From Gammaproteobacteria bacterium (lineage in GTDB: Bacteria > Pseudomonadota > Gammaproteobacteria > JAADGQ01): DNA of 47,426 nucleotides. The stretch lies in the NCBI GenBank assembly GCA_013152295.1, contig JAADGQ010000103.1, positions 2,381-49,806 of the forward strand, written 5' to 3'. Made by a program: the position numbers and the translations under genes. Below, piece after piece: positions 15,312-41,941 of the stretch (positions are counted from its first letter, which is position 1; every line of letters starts with the position of its first letter). Below the pieces are notes generated by a model. It searched no databases, was not told where the DNA came from, and saw only the letters and a list, made by a program, of their open reading frames with translations.

Positions 15312-18029
15312 GTGAACGTTAAAAACGACAGCGCTTGCCATCAAGACAACCAAAAATGCTCGGCACTCCCGGATTCTGTGCACAGCATTACAACGCTTGA
15401 CAGCTCATCAATCCAAGGCGACAGCGCCTATCGTCAGCTCCTAGATGCGTTGAATAGCGTTGCTTCACCGCTTGATTATAGCGTGGCGACCCCATCAAAC
15501 TCTGGTGAAATGCCCTCTGATGAAACACCTTCTGTCGAAACAATTGTCCAAGCAGCGCTGTGCCGAATAAAAACAGCCATATCACTGGATGCCCATGGGA
15601 TGCTTCAGGTTGACGGTGAGAATCAGGATTTTGTTCTGACCCACTGCAATCCATCACCATACCGAGACACGCTACAGCGCGCTGTTGAGATCTGCATCAA
15701 CGATGGTACCTTTGCCTGGGCCATCAGTCAGAGCCGAGCGATCGTAGTACAAACCAATATTGCCACCATCGTGCTGCATACCGTAGCCACCCGTGACAGA
15801 GTACTCGGCATGTATGCCGGCATCACCAGCAACACTGCCGATGAAATCAACGATGTTTCACTCAATTTGCTATCAGTCGTTTTGCATCAAGCTGCCTATG
15901 CCATCGAGAGCAGCGAACTCAACCAATACCTCGAAGAAAAAATAGCGACACGCACTGAGCAGTTGGAAAAAGCCAAAGAGCAAGCTGAAGCGGCGAACCG
16001 TGCCAAATCAGGGTTTCTATCAACCATGAGCCATGAGATACGCACGCCGCTCAACGGCATGGTTGGTATGCTCTCGCTGCTGCAGACCACACAGCTCAAC
16101 AATAGGCAGCAAGAGTTTCTCGATACTGCACTGAACTCGTGTGACAATTTGCTACTGCTGATTAACGATATTCTCGACTTCTCGAAAATCGAGGCTGGAA
16201 AACTAACGCTGGAACAGGTCAACTTCGATCCGCTCAACACCATTGAATCCAGCGCAATTACGTTGGCAGAGCAGGCCTATCAGAAAGGGCTCGAATTAAT
16301 TTTTGAGCTTCCTGCAAGTGCTTCGCTGGCTTTGATTGGCGATCCAACCCGACTCAATCAGATTATTATTAACCTTGTTGGTAATGCCATAAAGTTTACG
16401 GCAGAAGGTACAATCACCGTCAGTGCAAAATTGATGACGGTGGAAAATGACCACCGTGGGCTCTATGTCGAAGTGCGGGATACAGGCATTGGTATCGACA
16501 CCGATGCTCAACAAAATATTTTCAATTCATTTTCACAGGCTGACGATTCAACAACCCGGCGCTATGGTGGTACCGGTCTTGGTCTGGCTATCTGTAAAAA
16601 ACTTGCCACAGCAATGGGTGGTAAGATCGGCATTAACAGCGAATCTGGCAAAGGCAGCACCTTTTGGTTTACTGCCTATTTTAAGGAAACAAAAAGCAAA
16701 GAGGTAAAAAGTGAAGAGCCAACAAATACAAAGGCTGTCGATGCACTAAACAAAAAAATCAATGACAAACGCCTGCTTGTTGTAGAAGGTCAAAATATCA
16801 GCAGCGCCACCATTCGGCATCAACTCACGGGCTGGGGTATTCGTTACTCGTGCGTTGACAGTGCTGACAACGCTATTGAGGCGATCCGAGATGCAAAAGC
16901 AAGGGATTCCTATAACACCGTTATTGCAGACACCGCACTCACCGGGCTCGACAAACTCATCAGCGCCATTAAAAAGGAGCATACAAGTGATGGTGGCGAT
17001 CATTTACTAAAATTAATACTGCTCGAACCCTTCGGCCACGCCAGTCTGTCCGACGAAACAAAAGGTGCGGCGGTACTGACGCTCAGCAAACCGATTATTC
17101 GTTCAAAGCTTTTTGATCGAATTAACCAGGCAATCGGTACACGTAGCAATAATAGCGTTCACGAATTAAATACAGCAAAAACAGCTCTACACGGCAGCGC
17201 TAAACACGCTCTCGATTTCGGCGCCAACATATTGGTGGTAGAAGATAACGATATCAACCAACGTGTTATTGCCTCGATGCTTGGCAGCATGGATTGCGAG
17301 ATCACTATCGCCAACAACGGACAGGAAGCTGTAGAGCTGTTCACCAATAGTGGCGAGTACTATGACCTGATATTCATGGACTGCCAAATGCCAATTATGG
17401 ATGGCTATGCAGCAACGATAAAAATTCGCAACCTGGAAAGAGCGCAACAAACTTCAAGCAATAAAAAAACACACATACCGATTATTGCACTCACCGCCAA
17501 TGCCCTTAACTCCGATGCCGAGCGATGTTTTAAGGCAGGAATGGATGATTTTGTCACCAAACCCTACACCCCTAAAGATATACAAAATGCGCTGTCGCGT
17601 TGGCAGGGGAAAAATCAAGATACGGCACAGCGCACACGGGTAGAGTCACCAGCAGATCTCGAAACTGCACCAACCGATCACATGGGCATCGACGAGAAAA
17701 AGCTGTTGACCCTCTATCAGTTAATGGGGGATGCAGTATTTTCTGATCTGATAAAAACTTACCTCGAGCGTGCCACGCACCACATTGAGTCGTTGGAGAG
17801 ATGCACCACAACAGATGCACTGCAATCACTTAAAATGACGGCACATACCCTTAAAGGAAGCAGCGCTAATATCGGCGCAGAAAAACTTGCTGAACAGTGT
17901 AGTCAATTAGAAATTGCAGTTGCCCAAAGTAACGATCCCTCCGCTGTCAGTAGTGCTATCGCACAGATCGCGACAACATTCGAACAGACGAAAGAGGCAC
18001 TTGAGGAGTTTGCGGAAGAGCAAACTTGA
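15312..18029 (+). CDS. Soluble hybrid histidine kinase (GAF-like N-term, HisKA, HATPase, pseudo-REC, REC, Hpt)
   Basis: MSHEIRTPLNG, NLVGNAIKFT, DTGIG, GGTGLGL, VEDN..DLIFMDCQMP and AHTLKGSSANIGA. No TM segment seen. Confidence 0.93.
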   Translation: MNVKNDSACHQDNQKCSALPDSVHSITTLDSSSIQGDSAYRQLLDALNSVASPLDYSVATPSNSGEMPSDETPSVETIVQAALCRIKTAISLDAHGMLQVDGENQDFVLTHCNPSPYRDTLQRAVEICINDGTFAWAISQSRAIVVQTNIATIVLHTVATRDRVLGMYAGITSNTADEINDVSLNLLSVVLHQAAYAIESSELNQYLEEKIATRTEQLEKAKEQAEAANRAKSGFLSTMSHEIRTPLNGMVGMLSLLQTTQLNNRQQEFLDTALNSCDNLLLLINDILDFSKIEAGKLTLEQVNFDPLNTIESSAITLAEQAYQKGLELIFELPASASLALIGDPTRLNQIIINLVGNAIKFTAEGTITVSAKLMTVENDHRGLYVEVRDTGIGIDTDAQQNIFNSFSQADDSTTRRYGGTGLGLAICKKLATAMGGKIGINSESGKGSTFWFTAYFKETKSKEVKSEEPTNTKAVDALNKKINDKRLLVVEGQNISSATIRHQLTGWGIRYSCVDSADNAIEAIRDAKARDSYNTVIADTALTGLDKLISAIKKEHTSDGGDHLLKLILLEPFGHASLSDETKGAAVLTLSKPIIRSKLFDRINQAIGTRSNNSVHELNTAKTALHGSAKHALDFGANILVVEDNDINQRVIASMLGSMDCEITIANNGQEAVELFTNSGEYYDLIFMDCQMPIMDGYAATIKIRNLERAQQTSSNKKTHIPIIALTANALNSDAERCFKAGMDDFVTKPYTPKDIQNALSRWQGKNQDTAQRTRVESPADLETAPTDHMGIDEKKLLTLYQLMGDAVFSDLIKTYLERATHHIESLERCTTTDALQSLKMTAHTLKGSSANIGAEKLAEQCSQLEIAVAQSNDPSAVSSAIAQIATTFEQTKEALEEFAEEQT

Positions 18030-24518: not shown

Positions 24519-26897
24519 TTAAATTTTGTTCAGCGTAATGCTGGCTTCTTCAATGCCAGGGAATTTTTCATCGCCTGCCAACGACTTCTGCAAGTGCCTC
24601 TTCGCATCGCTGATTCTACCCTGTTCGTAATAAACCATACCTAGATGGTAGTGATAGGCCGCAACATTTGGCGCGATCTCCAACACCTTTTCAAACAGGC
24701 GAGCAGCCTCTTTCAGGTTGCCACGTTTGTAGTAGACCCAGCCCAGCGTATCCATATAAAGCGGGTTGCCCGAGTTCTCAAAGCCACGAGCCAGATCCAG
24801 CGCCTTATCCAGACTCGCTGCATCACCTTTACGCCCAACGAGTAAAACAGCCAAGTTGTTAGCTGCCAACGCCATATCCGCATCGCTATCGAATAGCCCC
24901 TCGTAGAGCGCGATAGCGGCATCAACATCACCCTGATTTTCATAGACGCCGGCCAACTGCAACACAACCCGGCGATCGCCGGGTAGAGCAACCAGCGCCT
25001 CACGATAGATTCGAATCGCCGCATCAACATCACCACGAGTCAGATAGAGATTCGCTAAGTCGATATAAGCGTCGCGCATCTTCGGATCGACCTTAATCGC
25101 CCCCAATAAAGCTGCTTCTGCTTTGTCATAATGATATTGAAACGCTTCAACCTCGCCCAACAATCCATAGGCGGCGGCCAAATCCGGTGCACGCTCAATC
25201 ACTGCCTGAATCTTTAACACCGCCTCCTCGGCGTTGCCCTGGGTTAAAAAGTCTTTATAGATACGAAACAGCTCGGTCAATGGCTCCTTGCTATCCGGAG
25301 ACTTCTCCAGTGCACCCTCGAACTCCGAAGAGGCTTCGCTATAGCGCTGCTGTAGCTGGTAAATCTGCCCCATACTGTAGAAACCGACGGCTTGATCCGG
25401 GTATGCCACTTTAATCGCTTTGGCGACATTTTCAGCCGCCTTCCAATCGCGGCGGATCGTGTAGGCATCCACCTTGGCCAGCAGTGCATTAAGGTTTTTG
25501 GGCGCAAGTTCGAGCAGTTTATCAGCAGTTTTTAATACCCCGTCGAGATCACCCAAAGAGATCAATACCTTCAGCAGTGACTGCCAGGTAAAAACATCCT
25601 CGCCATCCAACGACAGCACTTTGCTCAGGCTATCGCGCGCGTTGCTGTAATCACCACTGATCACATAAGCCTCTGCCAACAATTTAAGCGCCTCGATGGA
25701 GTTGGGGCGTACCGTCAACACTGCTTGCAGATCGGCAATCGCTTCCCGCGCCTCACTACGCGCCAACGCCAGCTTGCTGCGCGTTAACAGCGCATCGCGG
25801 TCCTTCGGATTCGCTTTCAAAACTTCACTGACCAACGTCGCAGCCTTTTCAGCCTGACCACGCTGCAACAGCATCAATGCCAGCTTGTTGCGCGCGGCCA
25901 AACCATTCGTGCCTTTATCATCCAGCGCGGCAATATCCGAATAGAGCTGCTCGGCCTGCTCCGGCCGCTTGGTTGCCACATAAAGTTCACCCAGCGCCAG
26001 ACGCAGCTGCAACGCTTCGGGCCTGTCCTCAATAGCATTGATCAGCTCCTGCTCGGCGGCATTACTACCTTTGCGAGAGGCCAAAAATTTACTCAAGAGG
26101 ACCACACGTTGAGGGTCGGATGGATCCAGCTTAACCAGCTCGCGCAACGCCTCCTCGGCTTTTTCCAGCTGGTTAGTATTAGAGTAAAAAACGGCCAGGC
26201 GGATTCGATGGCGCAGATCCTCTGGCTCCATGGAGACTACCTGTTGCAGCAGCGCCTCACTCTTTTCCGGCTGATTTTGGTTCACCAAAATTTGCGCCAG
26301 CGAAAGGTGCAGCGCCGCACTGCGCGGGCTCGCCTTAATCGCCCGCCGCAGTATCTCATCCGCTTGGGCAATATCGCCCTCCCGGCCGTAGAGCGTCAGC
26401 AGCAATATGGCAGCCCCTGATTGCGTTGCGTCGGCATCGAACACGGCACGCGCCTCTTTGATCGCACCCGCTATGTCGTTGCTACGCGACATCACAATCG
26501 CGCGCAGCGTTCGTCCCTCCAAATTACTGGGATCTCTCTCCAGCAACGCCTGCAGTGTTCGGGCAGCCCTCTCCACCTTGTTTGCCTGCAGGTAGAGCTT
26601 GCTCAGTTTAATGCTCGCCTGGGCCTGTCCTGGTTCCAACTCCAGCACTTTGTTGTAACTTTTGAAGGCCTGCTGCCACGCTTTCTCATGCTCCGCAATC
26701 CGGCCCAGCAAAAGATAAGCCTCTACAGACTGCGGGTTGCTCTGCAGCTCCAGCGTCAGCTCCGCTTTTGCGGCCTGAAAATCCCGCTTCTCCAGCAAAA
26801 TCTTGCTCTTGTTCAGGTGCGAGGGAAGCGCTGTATTTTGAGTTTCGCAAGCGCTCAGCAATAACCCGAATAAAACTAAAATGACAATATATTTCAT
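24519..26897 (-). CDS. TPR-repeat lipoprotein, PrsT-like (PEP-CTERM/exopolysaccharide-system type)
   Basis: Lipobox LLLSAC from ATG 26897, many TPRs, and C-terminal ANNLA...DTLGWVYY...YHLGMVY...F...EEA. Confidence 0.8.
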   Translation of the reverse strand: MKYIVILVLFGLLLSACETQNTALPSHLNKSKILLEKRDFQAAKAELTLELQSNPQSVEAYLLLGRIAEHEKAWQQAFKSYNKVLELEPGQAQASIKLSKLYLQANKVERAARTLQALLERDPSNLEGRTLRAIVMSRSNDIAGAIKEARAVFDADATQSGAAILLLTLYGREGDIAQADEILRRAIKASPRSAALHLSLAQILVNQNQPEKSEALLQQVVSMEPEDLRHRIRLAVFYSNTNQLEKAEEALRELVKLDPSDPQRVVLLSKFLASRKGSNAAEQELINAIEDRPEALQLRLALGELYVATKRPEQAEQLYSDIAALDDKGTNGLAARNKLALMLLQRGQAEKAATLVSEVLKANPKDRDALLTRSKLALARSEAREAIADLQAVLTVRPNSIEALKLLAEAYVISGDYSNARDSLSKVLSLDGEDVFTWQSLLKVLISLGDLDGVLKTADKLLELAPKNLNALLAKVDAYTIRRDWKAAENVAKAIKVAYPDQAVGFYSMGQIYQLQQRYSEASSEFEGALEKSPDSKEPLTELFRIYKDFLTQGNAEEAVLKIQAVIERAPDLAAAYGLLGEVEAFQYHYDKAEAALLGAIKVDPKMRDAYIDLANLYLTRGDVDAAIRIYREALVALPGDRRVVLQLAGVYENQGDVDAAIALYEGLFDSDADMALAANNLAVLLVGRKGDAASLDKALDLARGFENSGNPLYMDTLGWVYYKRGNLKEAARLFEKVLEIAPNVAAYHYHLGMVYYEQGRISDAKRHLQKSLAGDEKFPGIEEASITLNKI

Positions 26898-27134
26898 AAA
26901 GTTATCGTTGAAATCCAACATAGAGCTCATAGAAAAAGGCCGTCAAACATCCCGTCTGTTATCGACCGCCGCAACGGTGAAATTCACTGACACAATACGC
27001 CAACCTGCTGCGCAACGTCCAAATCATCTCTGACCTAATTTGCAGTGAACAGGTTCTTTGTAGCAGAGGGGACTATGGTAAGGTGTCGGCAATAATTAGA
27101 TCAAGGCGAAATGGCGCCGAAACACACAAGAACC

Positions 27135-28019
27135 ATGACACCGAACGACTACTGCCAGAACAGAGCTTCAAAAAGCGGCTCCAGCTTTTATTACAGCTTC
27201 CTTTTTCTACCTGCCAAACAGCGCCAGGCGATCATCGCTCTCTATGCCTTTTGCCGCGAAGTCGATGATGTGGTGGACGAATACACGGATGAAAATCTCG
27301 CCCGAATCAAGCTCGCATGGTGGCGCGAAGAGGTCGCACGCACTTTTCAGGGTGAACCTCAACATCCGGTAGGTAAGGCGCTACTCGAGGCCACTGACAA
27401 CTTCAATCTTCCTCAGGAGTACTTTGCAGAGATCATCGACGGCATGGAGATGGATCTGAATGATACCCGCTACGCAACCTTTAAAGAGCTGGCACTCTAC
27501 TGCCATCGCGTAGCCGGCGTCGTCGGCCTCATGGCTGCTGAAATTTTTGGCTATGAAGATCGCCGCACCCTTGATTATGCACAATCACTGGGCATGGCTT
27601 TTCAGCTCACCAATATTCTGCGCGATGTACGTGAAGATTGTGATCGTGGTCGCCTCTACCTTCCTCTCGAAGACCTGCAACGCTTTAATGTCAGTACAGA
27701 GCAGATCGCCTCCTACACGACCACCGATAACATCAGAGCGCTATTGGCTTTTGAAGCACAGCGTGCCCATGACTATTATCAAAAAGCCTTTGATGAACTC
27801 CCTGCATGTGACCGTTACCGACAGCTCAGTGGCTTGATTATGGCTGCAATATATAAGACCACCCTGCAGGAGATTGAGAACGATCACTTTAACGTATTGC
27901 AACATCGTATTCGCCTCACGCCGCTACGCAAATTGTGGATCGCATGGAAGACTGCCCGCCATGAAAAAAAAGCTCACAAGCAGATACAACGACGCACAAA
28001 AGCAGCCGATAGCATCTAG
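27135..28019 (+). CDS. hpnD: Presqualene diphosphate synthase HpnD (squalene/phytoene synthase family)
   Basis: SGSSFYYSF, LYAFCREVDDVVD, YC.RVAGVVG, QLTNILRDVRED..RGRLYLP and LTPLRKLWIAW. Confidence 0.88.
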   Translation: MTPNDYCQNRASKSGSSFYYSFLFLPAKQRQAIIALYAFCREVDDVVDEYTDENLARIKLAWWREEVARTFQGEPQHPVGKALLEATDNFNLPQEYFAEIIDGMEMDLNDTRYATFKELALYCHRVAGVVGLMAAEIFGYEDRRTLDYAQSLGMAFQLTNILRDVREDCDRGRLYLPLEDLQRFNVSTEQIASYTTTDNIRALLAFEAQRAHDYYQKAFDELPACDRYRQLSGLIMAAIYKTTLQEIENDHFNVLQHRIRLTPLRKLWIAWKTARHEKKAHKQIQRRTKAADSI

Positions 28020-28403
28020 TTTTTTTATGGCAGAACAAGGCAGCCAAGTGCTGCGTAAATTTTCTTAAACCCACGCTCTCATCTCACCAGTCCGTCCCCC
28101 CAAAGCGCCCTTGCAACAAAGGGTTGCGTCTCACACCCGATACGTATACATTGTGCGTGGTTGATAACCTGCTAATGTAGTTGACGATACGGGTTGCGCA
28201 CGATGATCAAATCAAGAAATATAGATATCCCAAGCCTGACCCTATATTTTTTCAACACAGCAAAATTCGCTATTTATCGCCATGACATAGAGGTGAATAT
28301 GCAAGCAACCAAACAATCCGTTACTTGCTAGCCCAGTCCGAAATGACTACCTCGATTAATGTGATCTTCATCACAAAACGACAAAACCAAGGGCACTAGT
28401 GTC

Positions 28404-28883
28404 GTGACTTTTAAGCGAGCATACCAAGCAATGGTGCGATCCATAATCGTATTGGTAGCGCTTGGTTTGTTCGCCGTTAATGCGACTGCAGAGACCCACA
28501 ATAAAGCACGCGGTGAAGTGGGTGAAGTGAAAGTCATCGCCTCTCCAGACACACCTGCACGCGAAACCACCGTACCTCAGCTGCGCGCAATCTTTGCCAT
28601 GCGGCTGCATAAATGGGCTGGCAACTTGCCTGTTACCGTTTATGTGCTGAGCGACTACCACCCCACTCACGCCGCGTTCAGCAAAACCATTCTGAATCTC
28701 TTCCCTTACCAAATGCGCAGAACATGGAATCGCTTGGTATTTTCAGGAACGGGTCAAGCACCCGAAGAGGTGCTCTCTGAAGAGGAGATGGTGCGCAAGG
28801 TGGCGTCAACCCCCGGAGCCATTGGCTACATAAGGAGGGTCAAAGCAGATGACAGCGTCCATGTGCTCAAGATCCATCGCTAA
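28404..28883 (+). CDS. Small exported PstS/PBP2-like (half-size) substrate-binding protein
   Basis: Signal peptide, then QLRAIF...W, H.AF, W.RLVFSGTGQAP and VASTPGAIGYI. An alternative ATG lies at 28431. Confidence 0.8.
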   Translation: MTFKRAYQAMVRSIIVLVALGLFAVNATAETHNKARGEVGEVKVIASPDTPARETTVPQLRAIFAMRLHKWAGNLPVTVYVLSDYHPTHAAFSKTILNLFPYQMRRTWNRLVFSGTGQAPEEVLSEEEMVRKVASTPGAIGYIRRVKADDSVHVLKIHR

Positions 28884-28914
28884 CCATGTTAGCTCGCGAC
28901 AGACGAATGGAATC

Positions 28915-30111
28915 ATGACTAAAACCACAGCAGTTATCTTGCTGACACTGTCAGTCGCCTCTCCGTTTGCCAGCAGCCTCGCAGGCAACAGCGCAAGCTC
29001 TGTGCAACTGCATGGCTTCATCAGTCAGAGTTACACACGCACATCCAACAACCGATTCTTCGGGGAGAGCGAAAACAACGGCAGCTTTGACTTCAGAGAG
29101 ATGGGCATCAATATCTCGGCACGACCCTCTCCCGACCTGCAGCTGGCCGCACAGCTCACCTCACGCAAAGCAGGCAAAAGTGACGACGGTGATGTACAGC
29201 TCGACTATGGATTGATGGATTACAGCTTTGCCGCCAATGAAACAGCGCGCTATGGAATGCGTCTTGGTCGCCTTAAAGTACCGCTGGGCCTATACAACGA
29301 GACCCGTGGTGCGCCGATGACCCGTGCTGGTATTTTGCTGGCTCAGTCCATCTACTTCGAGCGCTCGCGTAATGTCGCACTCTCCGCCGATGCGGGCGAG
29401 CTCTACGGCGAATACCGAGGCACCTTTGGGCAACTATCCGCACAAGCTGCGGTGGGCCGACCCAATGTTGTTGACCCAGACATCGAAACCGCACTGTTTA
29501 AACGCAACCAACCTGGAAGGCTGGAGGATGACATCGCCTACTCCGGTCGTATCATGTACGAAAACAGCGCCAGCACCCTGCGCGCGGCACTCAGCCATCT
29601 GCGTTTGTATATCCCCTATAACGCTGCTCCTGGCGATCCACTCGGCAATGGTGAAATTCGTTTTATCCCTTGGGTGCTCTCGATGCAGTACGACAGCGAA
29701 TTTTGGACACTCACGTCGGAATACGCTATCCGTCGCTTTGAATATTCACAGTTTGCCGCTTTTAATGACTTCGACATCAATGGGGAGAGTTACTATATCC
29801 AGGCTCAATATCACATAGCACCACGTTGGCGAGCACTGCTGCGCTACGACGTACTCTACAACGATGCCAAAGATCGCGACGGGCACGCCTTCGCAGCGAA
29901 CCCTGCGAATCGCGGGGTGCCTGCTTACAGCCAATTTGCCAAGGACTGGGCGATTGGCCTGCGCTGGGATGCACACCGACACCTGATGCTTAGAGCTGAA
30001 TACCATGACATCAACGGCACAGGCTGGCTACCCAACAATGACAACCTGATTCCCGCTGCCACACAAAAACATTGGAATCTGTTCTTGCTGTCGGCGACAC
30101 TCTATTTTTAG
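28915..30111 (+). CDS. Putative outer-membrane beta-barrel (porin-like)
   Basis: Signal peptide, LHGFISQ, GRLKVPLGLYNETR, alternating beta strands and a terminal ATLYF beta-signal. Confidence 0.8.
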   Translation: MTKTTAVILLTLSVASPFASSLAGNSASSVQLHGFISQSYTRTSNNRFFGESENNGSFDFREMGINISARPSPDLQLAAQLTSRKAGKSDDGDVQLDYGLMDYSFAANETARYGMRLGRLKVPLGLYNETRGAPMTRAGILLAQSIYFERSRNVALSADAGELYGEYRGTFGQLSAQAAVGRPNVVDPDIETALFKRNQPGRLEDDIAYSGRIMYENSASTLRAALSHLRLYIPYNAAPGDPLGNGEIRFIPWVLSMQYDSEFWTLTSEYAIRRFEYSQFAAFNDFDINGESYYIQAQYHIAPRWRALLRYDVLYNDAKDRDGHAFAANPANRGVPAYSQFAKDWAIGLRWDAHRHLMLRAEYHDINGTGWLPNNDNLIPAATQKHWNLFLLSATLYF

Positions 30112-30170
30112 CCGGTAGCAGGCCGTTGAAAAGCTCACACCACCACGGCTTCACTATATGGCGCGGCAGT

Positions 30171-33071
30171 ATGAAAACGGGCAAAACTTCATCACCAACG
30201 ACACGATTCCTCAGCCTGAAATGGCAGGCAGTATTGTTGGTGAGTATCGTATTGGTTGCGGTGAACGTGGCGATCTCACTTCTCAGCTACCACTCACTGT
30301 CAGACCAGTTCGAGCATGAACGCACGGTCGCCCAGCAACGCCATGCACAACAGCTCAGCGGACTCATCAAGCAATCTGAGCAGAAGCTGCAACAGCTTGG
30401 TGACATGCTACCCACCTTTGATGGCATCAAAGCAGCTCTTGCCAAAGGTGATGCTGATCTGATCAGCAATCAACTCGAAAAACACTGGCCAACACTACAT
30501 ATCGATCTGGGCATTGACAGTGTTGCTTTTTATGGCAACGGCAACCAACTCATCACATACAAAAACACCAAACGACAAACACCGATCAAACAGAGTCTGT
30601 CTGAACTTGTCAAAGCTGCTAACGACCGTGAAACACCAGCGGCACTGCTGAATTGCAATCATGGCTGCCTCCAGTACGTAGCCGTACCACTGCTGATTGA
30701 TGGTAAAAAAGTAGGGGTTGTCACCCTGGGCATCTCTCTTGCCGACCTGCTGCTCGGGTTTCAGCAGATAGCCAATGCCGACATCGCGATCATCAACACC
30801 GTGGCACCGCAACAAGGCAGCCCGGCAGAGGAGCCTGTCGATCGTGCCATTCCCGCTTGGGGCCGCCATGTAGAGGCGCTGACTCACGCCGAAAAAACGC
30901 TGCGAATTATTCGCCTCGCTGCCAAAAAATACCCAGCACTTTCGAGCGCACAGTTTCGCATTCGCGATCCGGCATCGGACCAGCACTATGAGATAGCATT
31001 GATACCACTGGCGGCTTACACGCAATCCCAACCAACTGATATCGCCATCATCGCCAATATCAGCGGCGCGCTAAAACAGATTCATAGCGCCGTTCAGCAG
31101 AGTGTCATTATCGGGATTATCAGCCTAGCGCTGTCCGAGTTGGTGCTACTTGCGCTGCTCTGGGTGCCTATGGCACGCCTGAGAAACATGGCTGAAACCT
31201 TGCCACTGCTGGCACGCAGTGCCTATGCAAAAGCACGACACGCCATTGCCCGACCTGCTGAAAGACAGTGGCTCGCTGACGAGATCGATCTGCTCGGCGA
31301 CAGTACGATCGAACTCTCTCACCAGCTGGAAGATCTGGAAAATCAGGTTGAACACCACACCCACTCATTAGCAGAAAAGATCGGCGAGCTCGCCCACGAA
31401 CGAGACTTCGTGCAGGACCTGCTCAACACCGTGCAGGTCATCATCCTCACCCAAGACAGCGAAGGTCGCATACTGCTGATCAATGACTACGGTCAGCGTT
31501 TAATCGGTTACAGCCAGCAGGAGCTGCATGGGCGCCGTTTCACCGAACTACTCGCTGACGATGGCGCACTCTCCACATGCCGCATCAAAGTAGAAGAGGT
31601 GATTAGCGGACGCCAGACGCAAACCCAGCAGGAGTGCGTCATCACCTGTAAAAACGGCACATGTCGAAATATCGCCTGGTTTCACTCACACCTGACCAGC
31701 GAACAGAAACGGGGGCAGACACTGCTCTCAGCCGGACTGGATATCACCACACGAAAACAGGCCGAGTCACGACTCGCCTGGCTGGCCGACCACGACCCGT
31801 TAACAATGCTGCCCAACCGTCGCCGACTGCAGGAGGAGCTCGCCATCATGTTGACACTGGCCGACCGCCACAAACACACTGGGGCGCTGCTATTTATTGA
31901 CTTGGATCAGTTCAAATATGTAAATGACACCAGCGGCCATCACGCTGGGGATGCACTACTGAGAGAGGTCGCCACTACCCTGAAACAGCTGCTGCGCAGC
32001 TCGGATATCGTTGCTCGACTGGGCGGTGACGAGTTCGCTGTCATCGTCCCGGAGATCAATGAAAAAGGAGCCGTCCAGGTTGCCCAAAAAATTCACGAAG
32101 ACCTCGCGACCATTGAGTTCCCTGTCCATCAGCGCGCCCACAAAGTCACCGCTAGCATCGGCATCGCCATGTTTCCGGCTCACGGTGCCCAACCTCACAC
32201 CCTGCTAGCCAACGCCGACCTAGCCATGTACCACGCAAAAGGGGCAGGCAGGAACCGCTCACACCTATTTTCTCCCGATGAGAAAGCCCGCGAACGCATG
32301 CAGGCTGACATAGATTGGCAGCAACGCATCGAACATGCCTTGAATCACGGTGGCTTCACGCTGCTCTACCAGCCGATCATGGATCTATCCAAGGAAAATA
32401 TCTCTCACTACGAAGTGTTGCTGCGTATGCGTGATAAAAACAGCGCTCTGCTAGCGCCGCAATCGTTCATCGAGGTTGCAGAGCGTAATGGTCAAATACG
32501 CGCTATCGATCATTTTGTATTAAAGCGGGCGATCACCCAGCTTTCAAAAATCACCACCAAACGGAATGATGTCACCCTCTCCATTAATCTCTCCGCCCAT
32601 GCTTTCGATGATCCCGAACTGCTCTCTCTGCTTAAAGGGCTGCTTGAAGAGACCTCCGTCCCCCCCAAGCAACTTGTTTTTGAGATCACTGAAACGGCTG
32701 CTCTCGCCGACATCATCGCGGCTCGTGACCTGATGATTGCCATTCGTAGGCTGGGCTGCCAATTTGCGCTGGATGACTTCGGTGTCGGCTTCTCCTCCTT
32801 CCACTATCTCAAGGAGCTACCCTTTGACTACGTCAAGATTGATGGCTCTTTCATTCGCAATTTGTCACAAAACAGGGATGACCAAATATTGGTAAAAGGT
32901 ATCTGCAGCGTAGCAGAGGGCTTCGGCAAAAAAATCATCGCCGAGTTTGTGGAGAACGAAGAGACGCTGGAACTGCTCAGAGAGTTCCAGGTTGATCTGG
33001 CTCAGGGCTACCACATCGGTGCACCTATCGATACAGTCCCTGATGACAACCGCTACCCAACCATCCATTAA
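30171..33071 (+). CDS. Membrane diguanylate cyclase/phosphodiesterase (periplasmic Cache-like sensor, HAMP-like, PAS, GGDEF, EAL)
   Basis: Two TMs, a PAS domain, HDPLTMLPNRR, RSSD I-site, RLGGDEF, EVLLRM, DDFGVG, KIDGSF, EFVE and QGY. Both catalytic domains look intact. Confidence 0.93.
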   Translation: MKTGKTSSPTTRFLSLKWQAVLLVSIVLVAVNVAISLLSYHSLSDQFEHERTVAQQRHAQQLSGLIKQSEQKLQQLGDMLPTFDGIKAALAKGDADLISNQLEKHWPTLHIDLGIDSVAFYGNGNQLITYKNTKRQTPIKQSLSELVKAANDRETPAALLNCNHGCLQYVAVPLLIDGKKVGVVTLGISLADLLLGFQQIANADIAIINTVAPQQGSPAEEPVDRAIPAWGRHVEALTHAEKTLRIIRLAAKKYPALSSAQFRIRDPASDQHYEIALIPLAAYTQSQPTDIAIIANISGALKQIHSAVQQSVIIGIISLALSELVLLALLWVPMARLRNMAETLPLLARSAYAKARHAIARPAERQWLADEIDLLGDSTIELSHQLEDLENQVEHHTHSLAEKIGELAHERDFVQDLLNTVQVIILTQDSEGRILLINDYGQRLIGYSQQELHGRRFTELLADDGALSTCRIKVEEVISGRQTQTQQECVITCKNGTCRNIAWFHSHLTSEQKRGQTLLSAGLDITTRKQAESRLAWLADHDPLTMLPNRRRLQEELAIMLTLADRHKHTGALLFIDLDQFKYVNDTSGHHAGDALLREVATTLKQLLRSSDIVARLGGDEFAVIVPEINEKGAVQVAQKIHEDLATIEFPVHQRAHKVTASIGIAMFPAHGAQPHTLLANADLAMYHAKGAGRNRSHLFSPDEKARERMQADIDWQQRIEHALNHGGFTLLYQPIMDLSKENISHYEVLLRMRDKNSALLAPQSFIEVAERNGQIRAIDHFVLKRAITQLSKITTKRNDVTLSINLSAHAFDDPELLSLLKGLLEETSVPPKQLVFEITETAALADIIAARDLMIAIRRLGCQFALDDFGVGFSSFHYLKELPFDYVKIDGSFIRNLSQNRDDQILVKGICSVAEGFGKKIIAEFVENEETLELLREFQVDLAQGYHIGAPIDTVPDDNRYPTIH

Positions 33072-33117
33072 TAGCCTGTTAACACAATTGGATTATCACA
33101 GCCAAAGGAGCCGCGCC

Positions 33118-33834
33118 ATGAATGAAAATGTAATAAGCCAGGATCCCTCCTCCTTTCAACCATCCAGCCAATTCGCAACAACACAGGACGAAAGACGGCA
33201 ACGAGAAAACGACAGGCGACAACAAGCGCGCGGTGACCGACGCACCGGCGATGATCGGCGCCTTATCAGTCGCGATGGCCTAGTCGTTCGCACCGTTGAT
33301 GGCGATGATGAGCTGGATCAAGTCTATCGATTGATCCACGATGCTTACGTCGAACAGGGCTACTGTCAGCCGCGTGCCGATGGCAGACTCATCTACCACG
33401 AAACCCTGACTCGCTCTCCACAAACTCACGTCCTGCTGGCAAAAAAAGAGGATGAGGTGGTCGGCACTCTGTCTGCCACCCTAGAAGGCCCACTGGGATT
33501 GCCATTGGACCCAGGCTTCCACACAGCCCATAAACGTATCGCGCGCGAAAAGCGAGCACTGTCGGTTATCTGGAGGCTGGCAACCCACAGGGATTACCGC
33601 CAAAATCAGTTCGTTGTCATGGAGCTCATCAAACTGGCGGTCCTGTCATCAATCCAACATGGCGCTATCACCGCCCTGTGCGTGTTTCACGACCATCATG
33701 AAAAACTCTACCAACGGCTGTTCAAGATGGAGTCGATGGCCCGCTGCAATACCGTGGATGGGTTTAATAACGAAACATTCGTCATGATGCGCTGCGACGC
33801 AGAAAAATGTCCGCCACGCTGGCTGCCCAACTGA
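33118..33834 (+). CDS. FeeM/N-acyl amino acid synthase-like GNAT protein with N-terminal (D/E)RR repeats
   Basis: ATG after AAGGAG. Motifs VYRL.HDAY...GY, VVGTLS, GP.GLPLD..F, WRLAT and HH...Y.RLF. Confidence 0.7.
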   Translation: MNENVISQDPSSFQPSSQFATTQDERRQRENDRRQQARGDRRTGDDRRLISRDGLVVRTVDGDDELDQVYRLIHDAYVEQGYCQPRADGRLIYHETLTRSPQTHVLLAKKEDEVVGTLSATLEGPLGLPLDPGFHTAHKRIAREKRALSVIWRLATHRDYRQNQFVVMELIKLAVLSSIQHGAITALCVFHDHHEKLYQRLFKMESMARCNTVDGFNNETFVMMRCDAEKCPPRWLPN

Positions 33835-33885: not shown

Positions 33886-33914
33886 TTGTCACACCCCGTG
33901 AACCTACGTAGAAT
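33886..33914 (+). promoter_or_regulatory. Sigma70 promoter of the rpsP operon
   Basis: TTGTCA-N17-TAGAAT. Confidence 0.7.
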
Positions 33915-34059: not shown

Positions 34060-34338
34060 ATGGTAATCGTTCGTTTGGCTCGCGGTGGTGCAAAGAAGGC
34101 TCCTTTTTACAGCATCGTCGTTGCCGACAGCCGTTTCCCCCGCGATGGCCGTTATATCGAAAAGATCGGTTTCTTTAATCCTGTCGCCAAAGAAGGGACG
34201 GAGCGCCTGCGTGTCAACCGCGAGCGTGTTGAGCACTGGCTGTCACAGGGCGCTCAACTCTCTGATCGTGTTGCCACGCTGCTGAAAAGCAACGCTGATG
34301 CAAAAAGTGACGAGAGCAGCGAACCTGCGGCGGCTTGA
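34060..34338 (+). CDS. rpsP: 30S ribosomal protein S16
   Basis: [36 protein letters not shown]. Confidence 0.98.
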
Positions 34339-36173: not shown

Positions 36174-36289
36174 CGCCCCAGCTTCTCGGGAATACCGAAA
36201 AGCAACAAGGCATGGCATCAGCAGGGGTGACAAAACTCACCCCTGCACTGCCAACCACTCCGCATTCAAGCCTGTTACTCTTGCGATTT

Positions 36290-38125
36290 ATGCGCTTTAA
36301 CCACCTGCTCCCGCCTCTTGCGCTCACACTGATCTTGGCTGCTGGCCTTGCATCGCACACGAGCCACGCTGAGAATACCCCCCCCACTGAGCAGAACCCA
36401 TCTGCCCTAAACGCTCTCGCTGAAGCAGCTTCATTTGCTCGTAGCGGCGCGATTAATCTTGCACTGGCCCAACTAAACCAACTGCAAGCGGCATCCATCA
36501 GCAGCACTGACACCTGGCTGCAAATTGAACGCACACGCCTGGAGATCTACCAGCAGCAAGGCATGTGGCCAGAGCTGACACGACGTTACCGACAGTTACC
36601 CGATGATCTGCCTACCGACTTTTCGCGCTGGGCAAGCACTGAATACGCTGTCGCGCTGATAGAGCTGGGCGAAGTGAGCGCAGCTCGCGACACCCTGCTG
36701 AGACTCATCTGGTCTGGATCCCAAGGTCTCGATGAAAATCTGTTCAGCCGCTGGCGAGCGCTGCTGATCCAGAGCTATCTGCGTGAAGACAACAGAGAGG
36801 ATGCCCATATCGCGCTACGCCGCTTTGAGCAGGATTACGGTGCAAGTTACCGCGACACTGCGCAGCTTTACACACGCCTGTGGTTAGTGGAAGACAAACC
36901 CAAACAGGCACTGCGCTACCTCGATGGCCCACAGAGCGGCTCTGGCTCCGAACCCAACGCCACAGCGCTCGCGCTATTGGCACAACTGCGCAGCAAACAA
37001 TCTCTGCCCGAGGTCGTTTTGAAACGGGCACTGCAGCAGCTGCAAGATCACAACATTCACGCCCCATCGCAACACGCCGCATTGGCACTGCTGTGGCTCG
37101 TCATCGCCGAGGCGGCGCAATCCAGCGGTGACGATCTCCGTTATCTTGACGCACTGGAGCAGCTGCTTGGCTTGCGCCGCAATGGTCGTCCAACTGACTT
37201 GCTAGTTCACACCACCCCCGAGCAGCTCTGGCAAGCCTATCTGGATAGCGCCCAGCGCGTCAGCAACCAGGCACAACTGCTGATCGGTAGTTATGAACCG
37301 TGGTACGCGTTAGCCGAATCGCTGTTGCATGAAAAACCACAACACGCCCGTGCGCTATTAGTCGAGTTAATTCTTAACAAAGCAGTTAACGAAAATTTAA
37401 TGCGCCGCGCTGAGAAACTGTTTTTCCGCTCACTGGGCAGCGCAGCAAATGGTCGTCAAATTCTCAACGCGCTCTACCTCAACAGTGAGCGCTACCCCAA
37501 CCCTGAGGCACTGCCACCCACTGTCCTCCACGGCCTGATTCAACTCGCTCTGAACAGCGCCGACATAGCGTTGGCATTTCGCCTTGCGGGTGATTTTCAG
37601 CGCACCCCCGAAGATGCCAACATCATCGACTGGAAGATTTTACAAACGCGCCTGCTCATCGTTGCCAAACAGAGCGAGCAGGCTGCCATACTGCTTGATG
37701 CATTGGTACAACAGCAAGAGCAGCTTGACAAAAATCAGCTGAATGACCTCTATGTTGCAATAGGTGACCTGCGCGCCAGCGGCAAGCGCGACGACAGCAT
37801 CGCGCTATACCACACGCTTGTACGCGGCAAACTGCCAGCTACCCTGCGCCACAACTTGCTGTTCGTACTCGGCGAACTGCACGAATCCAAAGCGGACTAC
37901 CGGCAAGCGGCGCGCTTCTACCTGCGTGCCAGCGAGCAAACACCCCCATCAAGCAGTGAACAATATAGCGCCGCCATCCGCCAACGTGCGGCAAAAATGC
38001 TCGGCATGGGCGGCTACAAAAACGACGCCAGAGCCCTCTACCGTGCATTGATGGAAGGGACACACGACGCTCAAGAACGCACGCTGTTGCAGAGTGAGTT
38101 TCAGCAGCTCGGTTACCTGCCCTAA
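36290..38125 (+). CDS. Exported all-helical TPR-like protein of unknown function
   Basis: Long ORF with a signal peptide from ATG 36290 ([27 protein letters not shown]) and Ala/Leu/Gln-rich TPR-like helices. Confidence 0.75.
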
Positions 38126-40975: not shown

Positions 40976-41941
40976 ATGTCCACGCTCTATCCGAAGATCG
41001 TCTGCTACGATCCCGCTGCACCATCAATAACTTCACGATTACGACTCGCCATACTATGCGCGCTGCTATTAACGCAGCCTGCGTTCGCCGCCGGCCCTTT
41101 TGCGCTGAACTTCCAGCCACTCGACGCCACGTTCGGCGACGATAATCGTGCCGACACCAGCTGTAATCGGCCCGATGTTGCTGATCGCGGCTGCTCGGGT
41201 AGCTGGAGCAACTCCGGCGATCCTACTGCATTTTTGCAGGAGTTAATCACCGTAGATGGCTCCTCTTACTACCACGTCATTATCGGTCTGCCAGAAGATG
41301 GCTTCGCTCAAGAGTATGTCGCCCAGGTTGGCGGCCCATCCTGGGAAGGTGCGTCGGGCTCAAACAGTCTGGGCGATGGAATCTGCCGCTCCGGGTTCGG
41401 ACCCGGTAACTTCGTACTAAGCGCATGCAACATCAGCGACCCACTCGGCGTCACACATGACAACGTCTTTACCGGCGTTGGCTCCGGCAACCCCAAAGCC
41501 GTCGTCATGCGCCAAGTCAACGGAGGCACCTGGGACGGCGCCAGCAATAGCTGGAGCTGTGCTGCCAGCGACAATTACTGCTCAGAGTTCAAAAAAGAGA
41601 ACTTTCTCTACAAACCCGTCATCACCCAAACCATCAACGAAGCCAGTGAGTACATGAACGCCAATTTCAGCTTCGATATGAGCGCTATTGACTACGATAC
41701 CAACACAACCGCGGGCACGATGGTTAATACAGTCACCATCAGCGACCCCACTCTCGATGACTACTCAATCGGCGCGGGCGACTTCAACTACGCTACCGAT
41801 GCAGATTCCAACTATTCGACGCTCAGCGGTGGCCGCTATATTTTCACCGGCAGCGGTCCTACTAACGCGAACCTTGAACCCTACGAATATATCGACGGTG
41901 ATTTCGCACTCGATCGAGAATGGTCCGAATTCAAAAATTAA
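40976..41941 (+). CDS. Secreted acidic Gly/Asp/Ser/Asn-rich protein with three Cys pairs
   Basis: Signal-like segment RLRLAILCALLLTQPAFA and extracellular-type composition. No family recognised. Confidence 0.75.
   Translation: MSTLYPKIVCYDPAAPSITSRLRLAILCALLLTQPAFAAGPFALNFQPLDATFGDDNRADTSCNRPDVADRGCSGSWSNSGDPTAFLQELITVDGSSYYHVIIGLPEDGFAQEYVAQVGGPSWEGASGSNSLGDGICRSGFGPGNFVLSACNISDPLGVTHDNVFTGVGSGNPKAVVMRQVNGGTWDGASNSWSCAASDNYCSEFKKENFLYKPVITQTINEASEYMNANFSFDMSAIDYDTNTTAGTMVNTVTISDPTLDDYSIGAGDFNYATDADSNYSTLSGGRYIFTGSGPTNANLEPYEYIDGDFALDREWSEFKN

Follow-up and report, generated by a model that had tools for sequence, protein, structure and literature searches.

Do four neighbouring genes whose products together span the cell envelope act as one signalling system? 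The question is raised by a locus on contig JAADGQ010000103.1 of a gammaproteobacterium, within a stretch of 47,426 nucleotides that was analysed as a whole and is called the window here. Between hpnD and rpsP, four co-oriented open reading frames (ORFs; 28404–33834, + strand) encode a small exported PstS-like protein resembling half of a periplasmic binding protein (half-PBP), a porin-like outer-membrane barrel, an inner-membrane GGDEF–EAL enzyme with a periplasmic dCache_3 domain (the sensor), and a FeeM-family acyltransferase of the GNAT (Gcn5-related N-acetyltransferase) type. A first-pass annotation had proposed that they form an undescribed trans-envelope circuit acting on cyclic di-GMP (c-di-GMP). 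We find that the first three genes, the trio, are a tightly conserved unit, and that acyltransferases related to the fourth recur beside it. As a whole, the best explanation, to which we give somewhat less than an even chance, is that the four genes form one signalling cassette in which an acyl amide is sensed via the trio.

Conservation of the trio

One genome per species was scanned, and the best 80 of 293 tblastn-confirmed half-PBP relatives made up the set of loci. A homologous barrel gene lies 3' of the half-PBP gene in all 79 loci with at least 1400 nt of downstream sequence, and a dCache sensor follows downstream on the same strand in 64 of the 71 loci with at least 2900 nt. In six of the seven exceptions the sensor gene is convergent (two), placed after an insert (two), placed after a second barrel copy (one) or located upstream (one); the seventh has a GGDEF–EAL gene in which the query detected no dCache domain. 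The full dCache–PAS–GGDEF–EAL set is encoded at 51 of the 66 loci with at least 4700 nt downstream; eight of these 66 have no PAS domain, and four have dCache–PAS without GGDEF or EAL. Across the 80 loci, no gene for an ATP-binding cassette (ABC) permease or ATPase lies between half-PBP and sensor. Because it recurs in 80 other loci, the cassette arrangement exceeds chance by far.

Half-PBP, barrel and c-di-GMP enzyme therefore belong together, as the first-pass annotation had assumed. Judged from gene order, the half-PBP, the OprO/P-like porin and the dCache_3–PAS–GGDEF–EAL enzyme are inherited together as an envelope-spanning sensory module, and it is highly probable that the trio is a functional unit. 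It is carried by Beta- and Gammaproteobacteria, among them Nitrosomonas, Nitrosospira, Nitrosovibrio, Thiobacillus, Accumulibacter, Nitrotoga and Competibacter, as well as Halomonas, Vreelandella, Kushneria, Methylotuvimicrobium, Methylomicrobium, Methylophaga, Sedimenticola and Chromatiaceae. In Thiobacillus-like loci the trio follows dapB.

Some loci are unusual. One (L076) has two barrel copies. Five loci (L026, L034, L050, L080 and L081) come from bins labelled Nitrospirota, Desulfobacterales or Bacteroidota; their cassettes group with proteobacterial ones in a barrel tree, those of L080 and L081 within the Competibacter clade. Mis-binning or gene transfer could explain these odd-phylum bins.

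An acyltransferase beside the trio

The subtype of GNAT found in the window is rare. Among 41 related genomes it occurs in one, the window's own, and among 58 loci testable by tblastn it adjoins the trio in one, L068. In a metagenome scan, L092 was found to hold a sensor-then-GNAT junction and L095 was too short to judge, while L093 and L094 carry the subtype without the trio. These low counts, together with the quite different context in L093 and L094, are what would be expected if the window's GNAT were a chance neighbour of the trio, transcribed alone. We nevertheless consider this very improbable. The gene is the sole FeeM-family gene of a 2.46 Mb genome and starts 46 nt after the sensor gene; the pairing is repeated in L068 with flanking genes unlike those of the window, and the junction recurs in L092; a weak consensus scan gave no + strand terminator-like site between sensor and GNAT; and in sister clades an acyltransferase of another subfamily sits by the trio.

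This other subfamily emerged from clustering of the flanking ORFs of the 80 loci, in which the commonest neighbour by far is an acyltransferase of 250–290 residues. All six representatives tested belong to TIGR03694 (174–269 bits, cut-off 112), a family named by NCBIfam ‘PEP-CTERM/exosortase system-associated acyltransferase’. The same six match the Pfam families Acetyltransf_5 and FeeM, and four of them, weakly, Autoind_synth. In a recount with hidden Markov models, 41 of the 80 loci had an acyltransferase no more than 700 nt from the trio, 40 of the TIGR03694 type besides that of L068. Where the trio is complete and at least 1300 nt are available on both sides, an acyltransferase is adjacent in 31 of 54 loci, and none of these 54 has a further copy elsewhere in its flanks. 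The expectation that the GNAT accompanies the trio in other genomes nearly failed for the window's own subtype (1/58 by tblastn) and held once the related TIGR03694 enzymes were counted (41/80). An interpretation of the GNAT as an unrelated neighbour, drawn from the tblastn count, was dropped after the clustering had revealed the TIGR03694 neighbours.

The position of the acyltransferase relative to the trio differs by clade. It is upstream on the same strand in 30 loci (Nitrosomonadaceae, Competibacter and others), downstream on the same strand in eight (seven Halomonadaceae and L068, which has the window's subtype), downstream on the opposite strand in two (methanotrophs) and upstream on the opposite strand in one (Thiocapsa). 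Two loci, L026 and L036, have three TIGR03694-like copies upstream of the trio. A barrel tree with 75 rows pairs the window with L068 as its sister (SH-like approximate likelihood ratio test, SH-aLRT, 89); both fall into a clade of 36 rows (support 89), and an acyltransferase adjoins the trio in 32 of the 33 labelled rows there. The simplest reading would be that in the window's lineage a downstream FeeM-type gene replaced an upstream TIGR03694 gene. Such a replacement argues for selection on having an enzyme of this kind in the cassette. By this comparative evidence, an N-acyltransferase of the LuxI/FeeM clan appears to have been selected to adjoin the trio, and a functional tie between the two is likely.

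A biosynthetic setting is suggested by one Nitrosomonas locus (L046, 2306–7009). There the acyltransferase gene comes after genes for an acyl-CoA ligase (TIGR03098, 788 bits) and a pyridoxal phosphate-dependent decarboxylase (TIGR03099, 626 bits), both exosortase-A-associated families, and is also preceded by an AsnB-like amidotransferase gene that scores below the TIGR03108 cut-off. The neighbourhood looks like a pathway for small-molecule synthesis. By clustering, similar ORFs were also found upstream in other Nitrosomonas loci (L022, L028 and L038).

Co-occurrence at genome level

In a sample of 400 genomes, 29 have a half-PBP of the trio type (E ≤ 1e-40). TIGR03694 was detected above cut-off in 46 of the 400, namely 17 of the 29 trio carriers against 29 of the 371 others (odds ratio 16.7, Fisher p 1e-10). 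Removal of four unpublished genomes (G297, G309, G042 and G143) left 14/25 against 29/371 (odds ratio 15.0, p 7e-9). Exosortase (TIGR02602; 111/401 overall) was detected in 16/29 against 95/371 (odds ratio 3.6, p 0.002), counts which include the unpublished genomes; all three odds ratios are uncorrected for kinship. The link of the GNAT to the trio is real, because TIGR03694 is present in 17/29 against 29/371 genomes and because the single FeeM-family gene of the window's genome sits in the cassette. That genome has one exosortase.

The exosortase counts bear on a different explanation, in which phosphate, sulfate, a related oxyanion or some other nutrient or small anion is the cue for the trio and the acyltransferase is merely co-regulated as a member of a biofilm/exosortase gene set. 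We regard this as unlikely, although it draws on two separate lines of evidence, one of which concerns the binding protein and is taken up below. For co-regulation speaks the enrichment of TIGR03694 in exosortase genomes: 32 of the 46 TIGR03694 genomes have an exosortase, compared with 79 of the 354 others. However, TIGR03694 is also present in 14 genomes without an exosortase match, eight of which have the trio (three of the eight, G042, G297 and G309, are unpublished). In all eight, roughly 0.4 kb at most separates the acyltransferase gene from the half-PBP gene on one contig, which makes the tie of the acyltransferase to the trio at least as close as that to the exosortase. Adjacency has, moreover, been kept despite changes of side, strand and even subfamily.

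The four proteins

The first-pass annotation had called the four products a small periplasmic PstS-like lobe, an outer-membrane barrel with a terminal Phe, a diguanylate cyclase/phosphodiesterase with intact GGDEF, RxxD and EVL motifs and a FeeM-like GNAT. Profile searches, models and the translations bear out all four assignments.

The half-PBP (28404–28883, +, 159 residues) has a Sec-type signal peptide, as read from the sequence, which leaves about 130 mature residues; an alternative start, M10 at 28431, corresponds to the 150-residue version of the gene caller (P0001). It matches PF12849 (PBP_like_2) above cut-off (E 1.5e-7, 31.9 bits, cut-off 27), covering profile positions 94–185 of 267 only. 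An AlphaFold2 model built from 77 sequences (predicted local distance difference test, pLDDT, 89.6) superimposes on the ten best PstS structures with template modelling (TM) scores of 0.67–0.74 normalized by query and 0.32–0.40 by target. Since the score is about 0.7 by query but only 0.32–0.40 by target, the half-PBP is, according to the model, one lobe of the phosphate-binding-protein fold; it does not have the two closing lobes of the PstS/PBP_like_2 class. A single lobe would not be able to close on a ligand alone; a second copy, the dCache domain or the barrel would therefore have to serve as its partner. The family is large: 659 of 715 candidate proteins pass E 0.001, most of them 130–160 residues long and named as hypothetical or substrate-binding proteins, and at least one member (E ≤ 1e-10) was found in 88 of the 400 genomes of the class sample.

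This ancestry is the second line of evidence for an anion-sensing trio with a merely co-regulated acyltransferase. The half-PBP is one PstS lobe, and the barrel has its nearest relatives among predicted structures in Porin_O_P clusters (TM 0.93); of the solved porins, OprP is nearest to it (TM 0.66 by query). An ABC importer (SBP_bac_11, permease and CysA-like genes) directly precedes the trio in Accumulibacter L043 (3810–7768), and a CysA-like gene was also found upstream in Accumulibacter L033, L035 and L049 by ORF clustering. On the other hand, the half-PBP is without the whole second lobe. In a profile alignment to PstS chains, its N-terminal strand–helix and its C-terminal motif align, but the PstS stretch at about 114–138, which we take to hold a phosphate-binding loop, is unmatched.

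The barrel gene (28915–30111, +, 398 residues) probably starts at 28915 rather than at 28849. The protein scores below the cut-off for Porin_4 (21.4 bits, cut-off 27), does not reach that for Porin_O_P and has no NCBIfam match. Its AlphaFold2 model (pLDDT 95.4) has 16 strands and, together with the fold matches, shows the inward loop and C-terminal aromatic residue (Phe) of 16-stranded porins. The long loop, which follows strand 5 at residues 99–133, carries most of the near-invariant residues of the family. OmpT and Omp32 were matched among solved porins in addition to OprP.

Pairing of a half-PBP with a barrel extends beyond the trio. Five half-PBP loci were examined, three from the window's own genome and two from relatives; in each of them the half-PBP adjoins a porin-like barrel or a fragment of one, and in two of the five a methyl-accepting chemotaxis protein (MCP) is also present. 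To our knowledge, such a pair is represented neither by a solved structure nor by a curated family. In the window's genome, contig C98 (L008, 6474–9528) encodes an MCP with a HAMP domain, a half-PBP and, at the contig end, a BBP2-like barrel; contig C67 (L009, 4139–5702) encodes a Porin_4 barrel followed by a half-PBP. One relative has an MCP, two half-PBPs and then a likely barrel fragment without family match, the other a porin followed by a half-PBP, without sensor.

The sensor gene (30171–33071, +, 966 residues, start likely) encodes an inner-membrane protein with two predicted membrane helices (30222–30284 and 31104–31172, read from the sequence) enclosing a periplasmic dCache_3 domain (30285–31103; PF14827, 72.5 bits, cut-off 25.7). 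A cytoplasmic PAS domain (31410–31760) is followed by a GGDEF domain (31785–32258; PF00990, 174.6 bits) and an EAL domain (32322–33026; PF00563, 242 bits), all assigned by Pfam. The translation contains the GGDEF motif, an RxxD site five residues upstream of it, and EVLLR and DDFGVGFSS in the EAL domain. The catalytic motifs of both domains are intact as read, and activity is predicted. RxxD and GGDEF are both present in 36 of 63 members of the sensor family. A CxxxC pair in the periplasmic domain (30654–30668) is invariant in the alignment of the 63 sensors, and a pattern search found it in 61 of 63; its candidate roles are disulfide, redox switch and metal site. Complex predictions of the half-PBP with the periplasmic dCache domain, run without controls, gave scores of 0.25 and 0.18 (mark 0.32).

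The GNAT gene starts at 33118 rather than at 32947 and ends at 33834 (+, 238 residues, as in P0121). Its product matches PF21926 (FeeM; E 6e-29, 101.3 bits, cut-off 27), and a profile of its family aligns with the solved FeeM (2g0b) over 161 positions (E 8.2e-18); phmmer with the single sequence found no match in the PDB. Neither the window's GNAT nor any other protein of its genome matches TIGR03694 (cut-off 111.95 bits). From its family, the enzyme is predicted to make N-acyl amides. An exhaustive search gave 1305 representatives of the family, 19 of them below 1e-30, where a word-index search had given two proteins. In L093 (6595–12357) and L094, the GNAT lies among WD40, HHH–Roadblock and MshEN–REC–DUF4388 proteins; MshEN is a c-di-GMP-binding domain.

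A roughly 50-residue N-terminal tail of the GNAT is rich in Arg and Asp (33187–33264, +) and has RxxxR and RxxD spacings in the translation, which we take to occur also in c-di-GMP sites. It could be read in favour of a reverse link, in which the trio senses an outside cue and its c-di-GMP controls the acyltransferase, by binding or by local signalling, so that the acyl amide would be an output, e.g. a surfactant, a lipid or a matrix modifier. A precedent is provided by Nas343 and Nas354, metagenome-derived FeeM-like synthases that make N-acyltyrosine and are fused to a PilZ domain that binds c-di-GMP; control by c-di-GMP is proposed for them in the accessible part of the source (PMC4897644). 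The tail itself is not conserved, however. Relatives match from query residue 26 at the earliest and mostly from about 50–60, the N-termini of 18 relatives differ from each other, and no relative read has the tail, L068 and P0122 included; we rejected it as a conserved c-di-GMP site. No PilZ domain was found in the window's GNAT, in the 10 longer relatives checked or in the six TIGR03694 neighbours, for which the Pfam scan gave acyltransferase-type families only. Control of the acyltransferase by the trio thus seems distinctly unlikely.

The site of the cassette

All four ORFs are present, closely spaced and co-oriented, between hpnD and rpsP, as first described. The gaps between them are 31, 59 and 46 nt; hpnD (27111–28019; TIGR03465, 372.8 bits) is 384 nt upstream of the set and rpsP (34060–34338, profile match) 225 nt downstream. 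Consensus scans of the region for promoters and terminators performed near chance level. They placed a weak terminator-like hairpin 3' of hpnD (28040–28054, +), likely the upstream boundary of the cassette, and a weak promoter-like site before rpsP (33886–33914, +; four sites against 4.3 expected by chance), likely its downstream boundary. No convincing + strand terminator was seen by these scans between the four genes; the sole + strand terminator-like site inside the set (30214–30229) falls within the start of the sensor coding region. The absence of an ABC permease or ATPase near the half-PBP, also part of the first description, was confirmed among the window ORFs scanned (15312–44713, with some small ORFs outside the scan).

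Three genomes of the same family keep hpnD and an adjoining gene for a tetratricopeptide repeat (TPR) protein, without an adjoining cassette or rpsP. A clean insertion was rejected for this site, which is a synteny break. In the window, the TPR protein (24519–26930, –, 803 residues) scores just under the cut-off of the PrsT (XrtA/PEP-CTERM TPR) model (302.9 bits, cut-off 312.2). Two further ORFs, 36212–38125 (637 residues) and 40976–41941 (321 residues), remained without a match in Pfam and NCBIfam at the thresholds applied, and 15312–18029 encodes a BarA/TorS-like hybrid histidine kinase of 905 residues. The remaining genes of the window are housekeeping genes: topA, rsgA, sohB, rmuC, rpsP–rimM–trmD–rplS, hflD and purB.

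A candidate acyl-amide circuit

For the preferred explanation, a single cassette that senses an acyl amide, the mechanism that we consider most likely is as follows. The acyltransferase would make a long-chain N-acyl amide from acyl-acyl carrier protein and an amino acid or amine. This amphiphile would exit the cell and re-enter through the dedicated porin, and the half-PBP would catch it, alone or with the dCache domain. The loaded sensor would then shift the balance between its GGDEF and EAL activities, and the resulting change in c-di-GMP would steer matrix, floc or PEP-CTERM-type functions. The central step, that the product of the synthase is the ligand sensed by the trio, we propose tentatively, as something that may well turn out otherwise. 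Rather doubtful is the more far-reaching version, a quorum-sensing or autocrine circuit free of LuxR, in which an acyl-amide signal is written directly into c-di-GMP via porin, single-lobe binder and dCache receptor. Of the circuit outlined in the first-pass annotation, the conserved trio and the recurrent acyltransferase neighbour (in 31/54 loci, and in 17/29 against 29/371 genomes) are thus supported, and the inclusion of the GNAT as a working part of a trans-envelope circuit is retained as a proposal.

Several points weigh against the circuit as preferred here. The ties among its parts come from comparative genomics. The 80 loci are those most similar to the query rather than a random sample, and the threshold of E ≤ 1e-40 was picked after the scores had been seen, with the paralogues of the window's genome at about 1e-36. 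An adjacent acyltransferase is missing in 23 of the 54 fully testable loci, and 12 of the 29 trio genomes are without TIGR03694 (among them the window's genome, which has the FeeM type instead); with so many loci and genomes lacking such a synthase, the trio can work without one as a neighbour. Adjacency states also cluster by clade, with six changes on the 75 rows of the barrel tree, and therefore represent few independent events, perhaps four or five. Finally, both periplasmic parts descend from phosphate-uptake proteins, so that a small oxyanion fits at least as well as a lipid amide.

Significance and relation to known systems

The cassette is a variant of a widespread module that is linked to orphan N-acyl amino acid synthases of the exosortase type. 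Genes for N-acyl amino acid synthases near PEP-CTERM/exosortase genes were described by Craig et al. 2011, as cited in the accessible parts of PMC7293339 and PMC11072679. According to the latter, as far as accessible, disruption of an exosortase-type synthase in Methylomonas LW13 led to loss of a polysaccharide band and of growth in a gradient system, both restored by complementation (PMC11072679). The accessible literature gave no receptor or physiological role for exosortase-associated N-acyl amino acid synthases. None of the terms GGDEF, acyltransferase, diguanylate, porin, homoserine or EAL domain occurs in Haft 2006 (PMC1569441), and no description of the trio or of a trio–synthase link was found in the literature covered, which leaves out most subscription papers and supplements. 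The term ‘undescribed’ in the first-pass annotation can be kept within the limited reach of this search.

The cassette provides a concrete candidate partner for these synthases, consisting of a c-di-GMP enzyme and two envelope helpers. If the LuxR-free circuit were true, orphan exosortase-associated synthases would gain a receptor and would take part in controlling floc and matrix in nitrifiers, Competibacter, methanotrophs and halomonads, possibly with a receptor-only version in Accumulibacter. Carriers such as Nitrosomonas, Nitrosospira, Accumulibacter, Competibacter, Thiobacillus, methanotrophs and halomonads matter for wastewater treatment and biogeochemistry, fields in which process performance hinges on how flocs and biofilms form. 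The idea is directly testable, since cultured carriers exist (Methylotuvimicrobium buryatense 5G, Vreelandella titanicae BH1, Kushneria pakistanensis and Nitrosomonas oligotropha Nm75). Independently of the circuit, the analysis reveals a widespread family of single-lobe PstS-like proteins, paired with a barrel in the five loci examined and sometimes accompanied by chemoreceptors.

The cassette shares the logic of NspS–MbaA, YfiBNR and RpfF–RpfR, but as a part it has only the GGDEF–EAL core in common with them. In the YfiBNR (TpbB) system, the outer-membrane protein YfiB, the periplasmic YfiR and the inner-membrane cyclase YfiN act together. As in the cassette, each envelope layer contributes one component to the input of a c-di-GMP enzyme. 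The parts are, however, non-homologous: the cassette has a 16-strand porin where YfiBNR has an OmpA-like lipoprotein, and the sensor matches the DgcN/YfiN model in its GGDEF domain only (167 bits, cut-off 325).

NspS–MbaA of Vibrio cholerae, in the accounts accessible to us, is alike in that a partner with binding-protein fold is encoded beside an inner-membrane GGDEF–EAL enzyme with a periplasmic sensor domain. Whereas NspS is a full two-lobe polyamine binder, the partner in the cassette has only one PstS-like lobe (about 130 residues when mature), and its binding to the sensor is putative; the cassette adds a porin that is always present and, often, an acyltransferase.

The OprP/OprO porins and PstS are related to the barrel and to the half-PBP by fold ancestry. 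Unlike that system, the cassette keeps one lobe of the binder and has a signalling enzyme as partner, and no ABC transporter is encoded among the scanned ORFs.

In RpfF–RpfR, the synthase of the Burkholderia diffusible signal factor (BDSF) is encoded beside its PAS–GGDEF–EAL receptor, and cqsA–cqsS is likewise a synthase–receptor pair. The cassette resembles them in the adjacency of synthase and receptor genes and in the absence of LuxR, and it shares the PAS–GGDEF–EAL receptor core. It differs from RpfF–RpfR in that the synthase is a GNAT of the LuxI/FeeM clan and not a crotonase, with a putative signal and putative binding, and in that the receptor sits in the membrane, has its dCache domain in the periplasm and is joined by two envelope helpers.

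The exosortase-associated TIGR03694 synthases belong to the same clan as the window's GNAT, many trio loci carry them, and the window's genome has an exosortase, whereas the window's GNAT is of the FeeM-type subfamily and has no TIGR03694 match. Nas343 and Nas354 likewise connect a FeeM-like synthase with c-di-GMP signalling, as far as the accessible text of PMC4897644 describes it. There the connection is a fused PilZ receptor domain; in the cassette, which has no PilZ, it is adjacency to an enzyme of c-di-GMP turnover.

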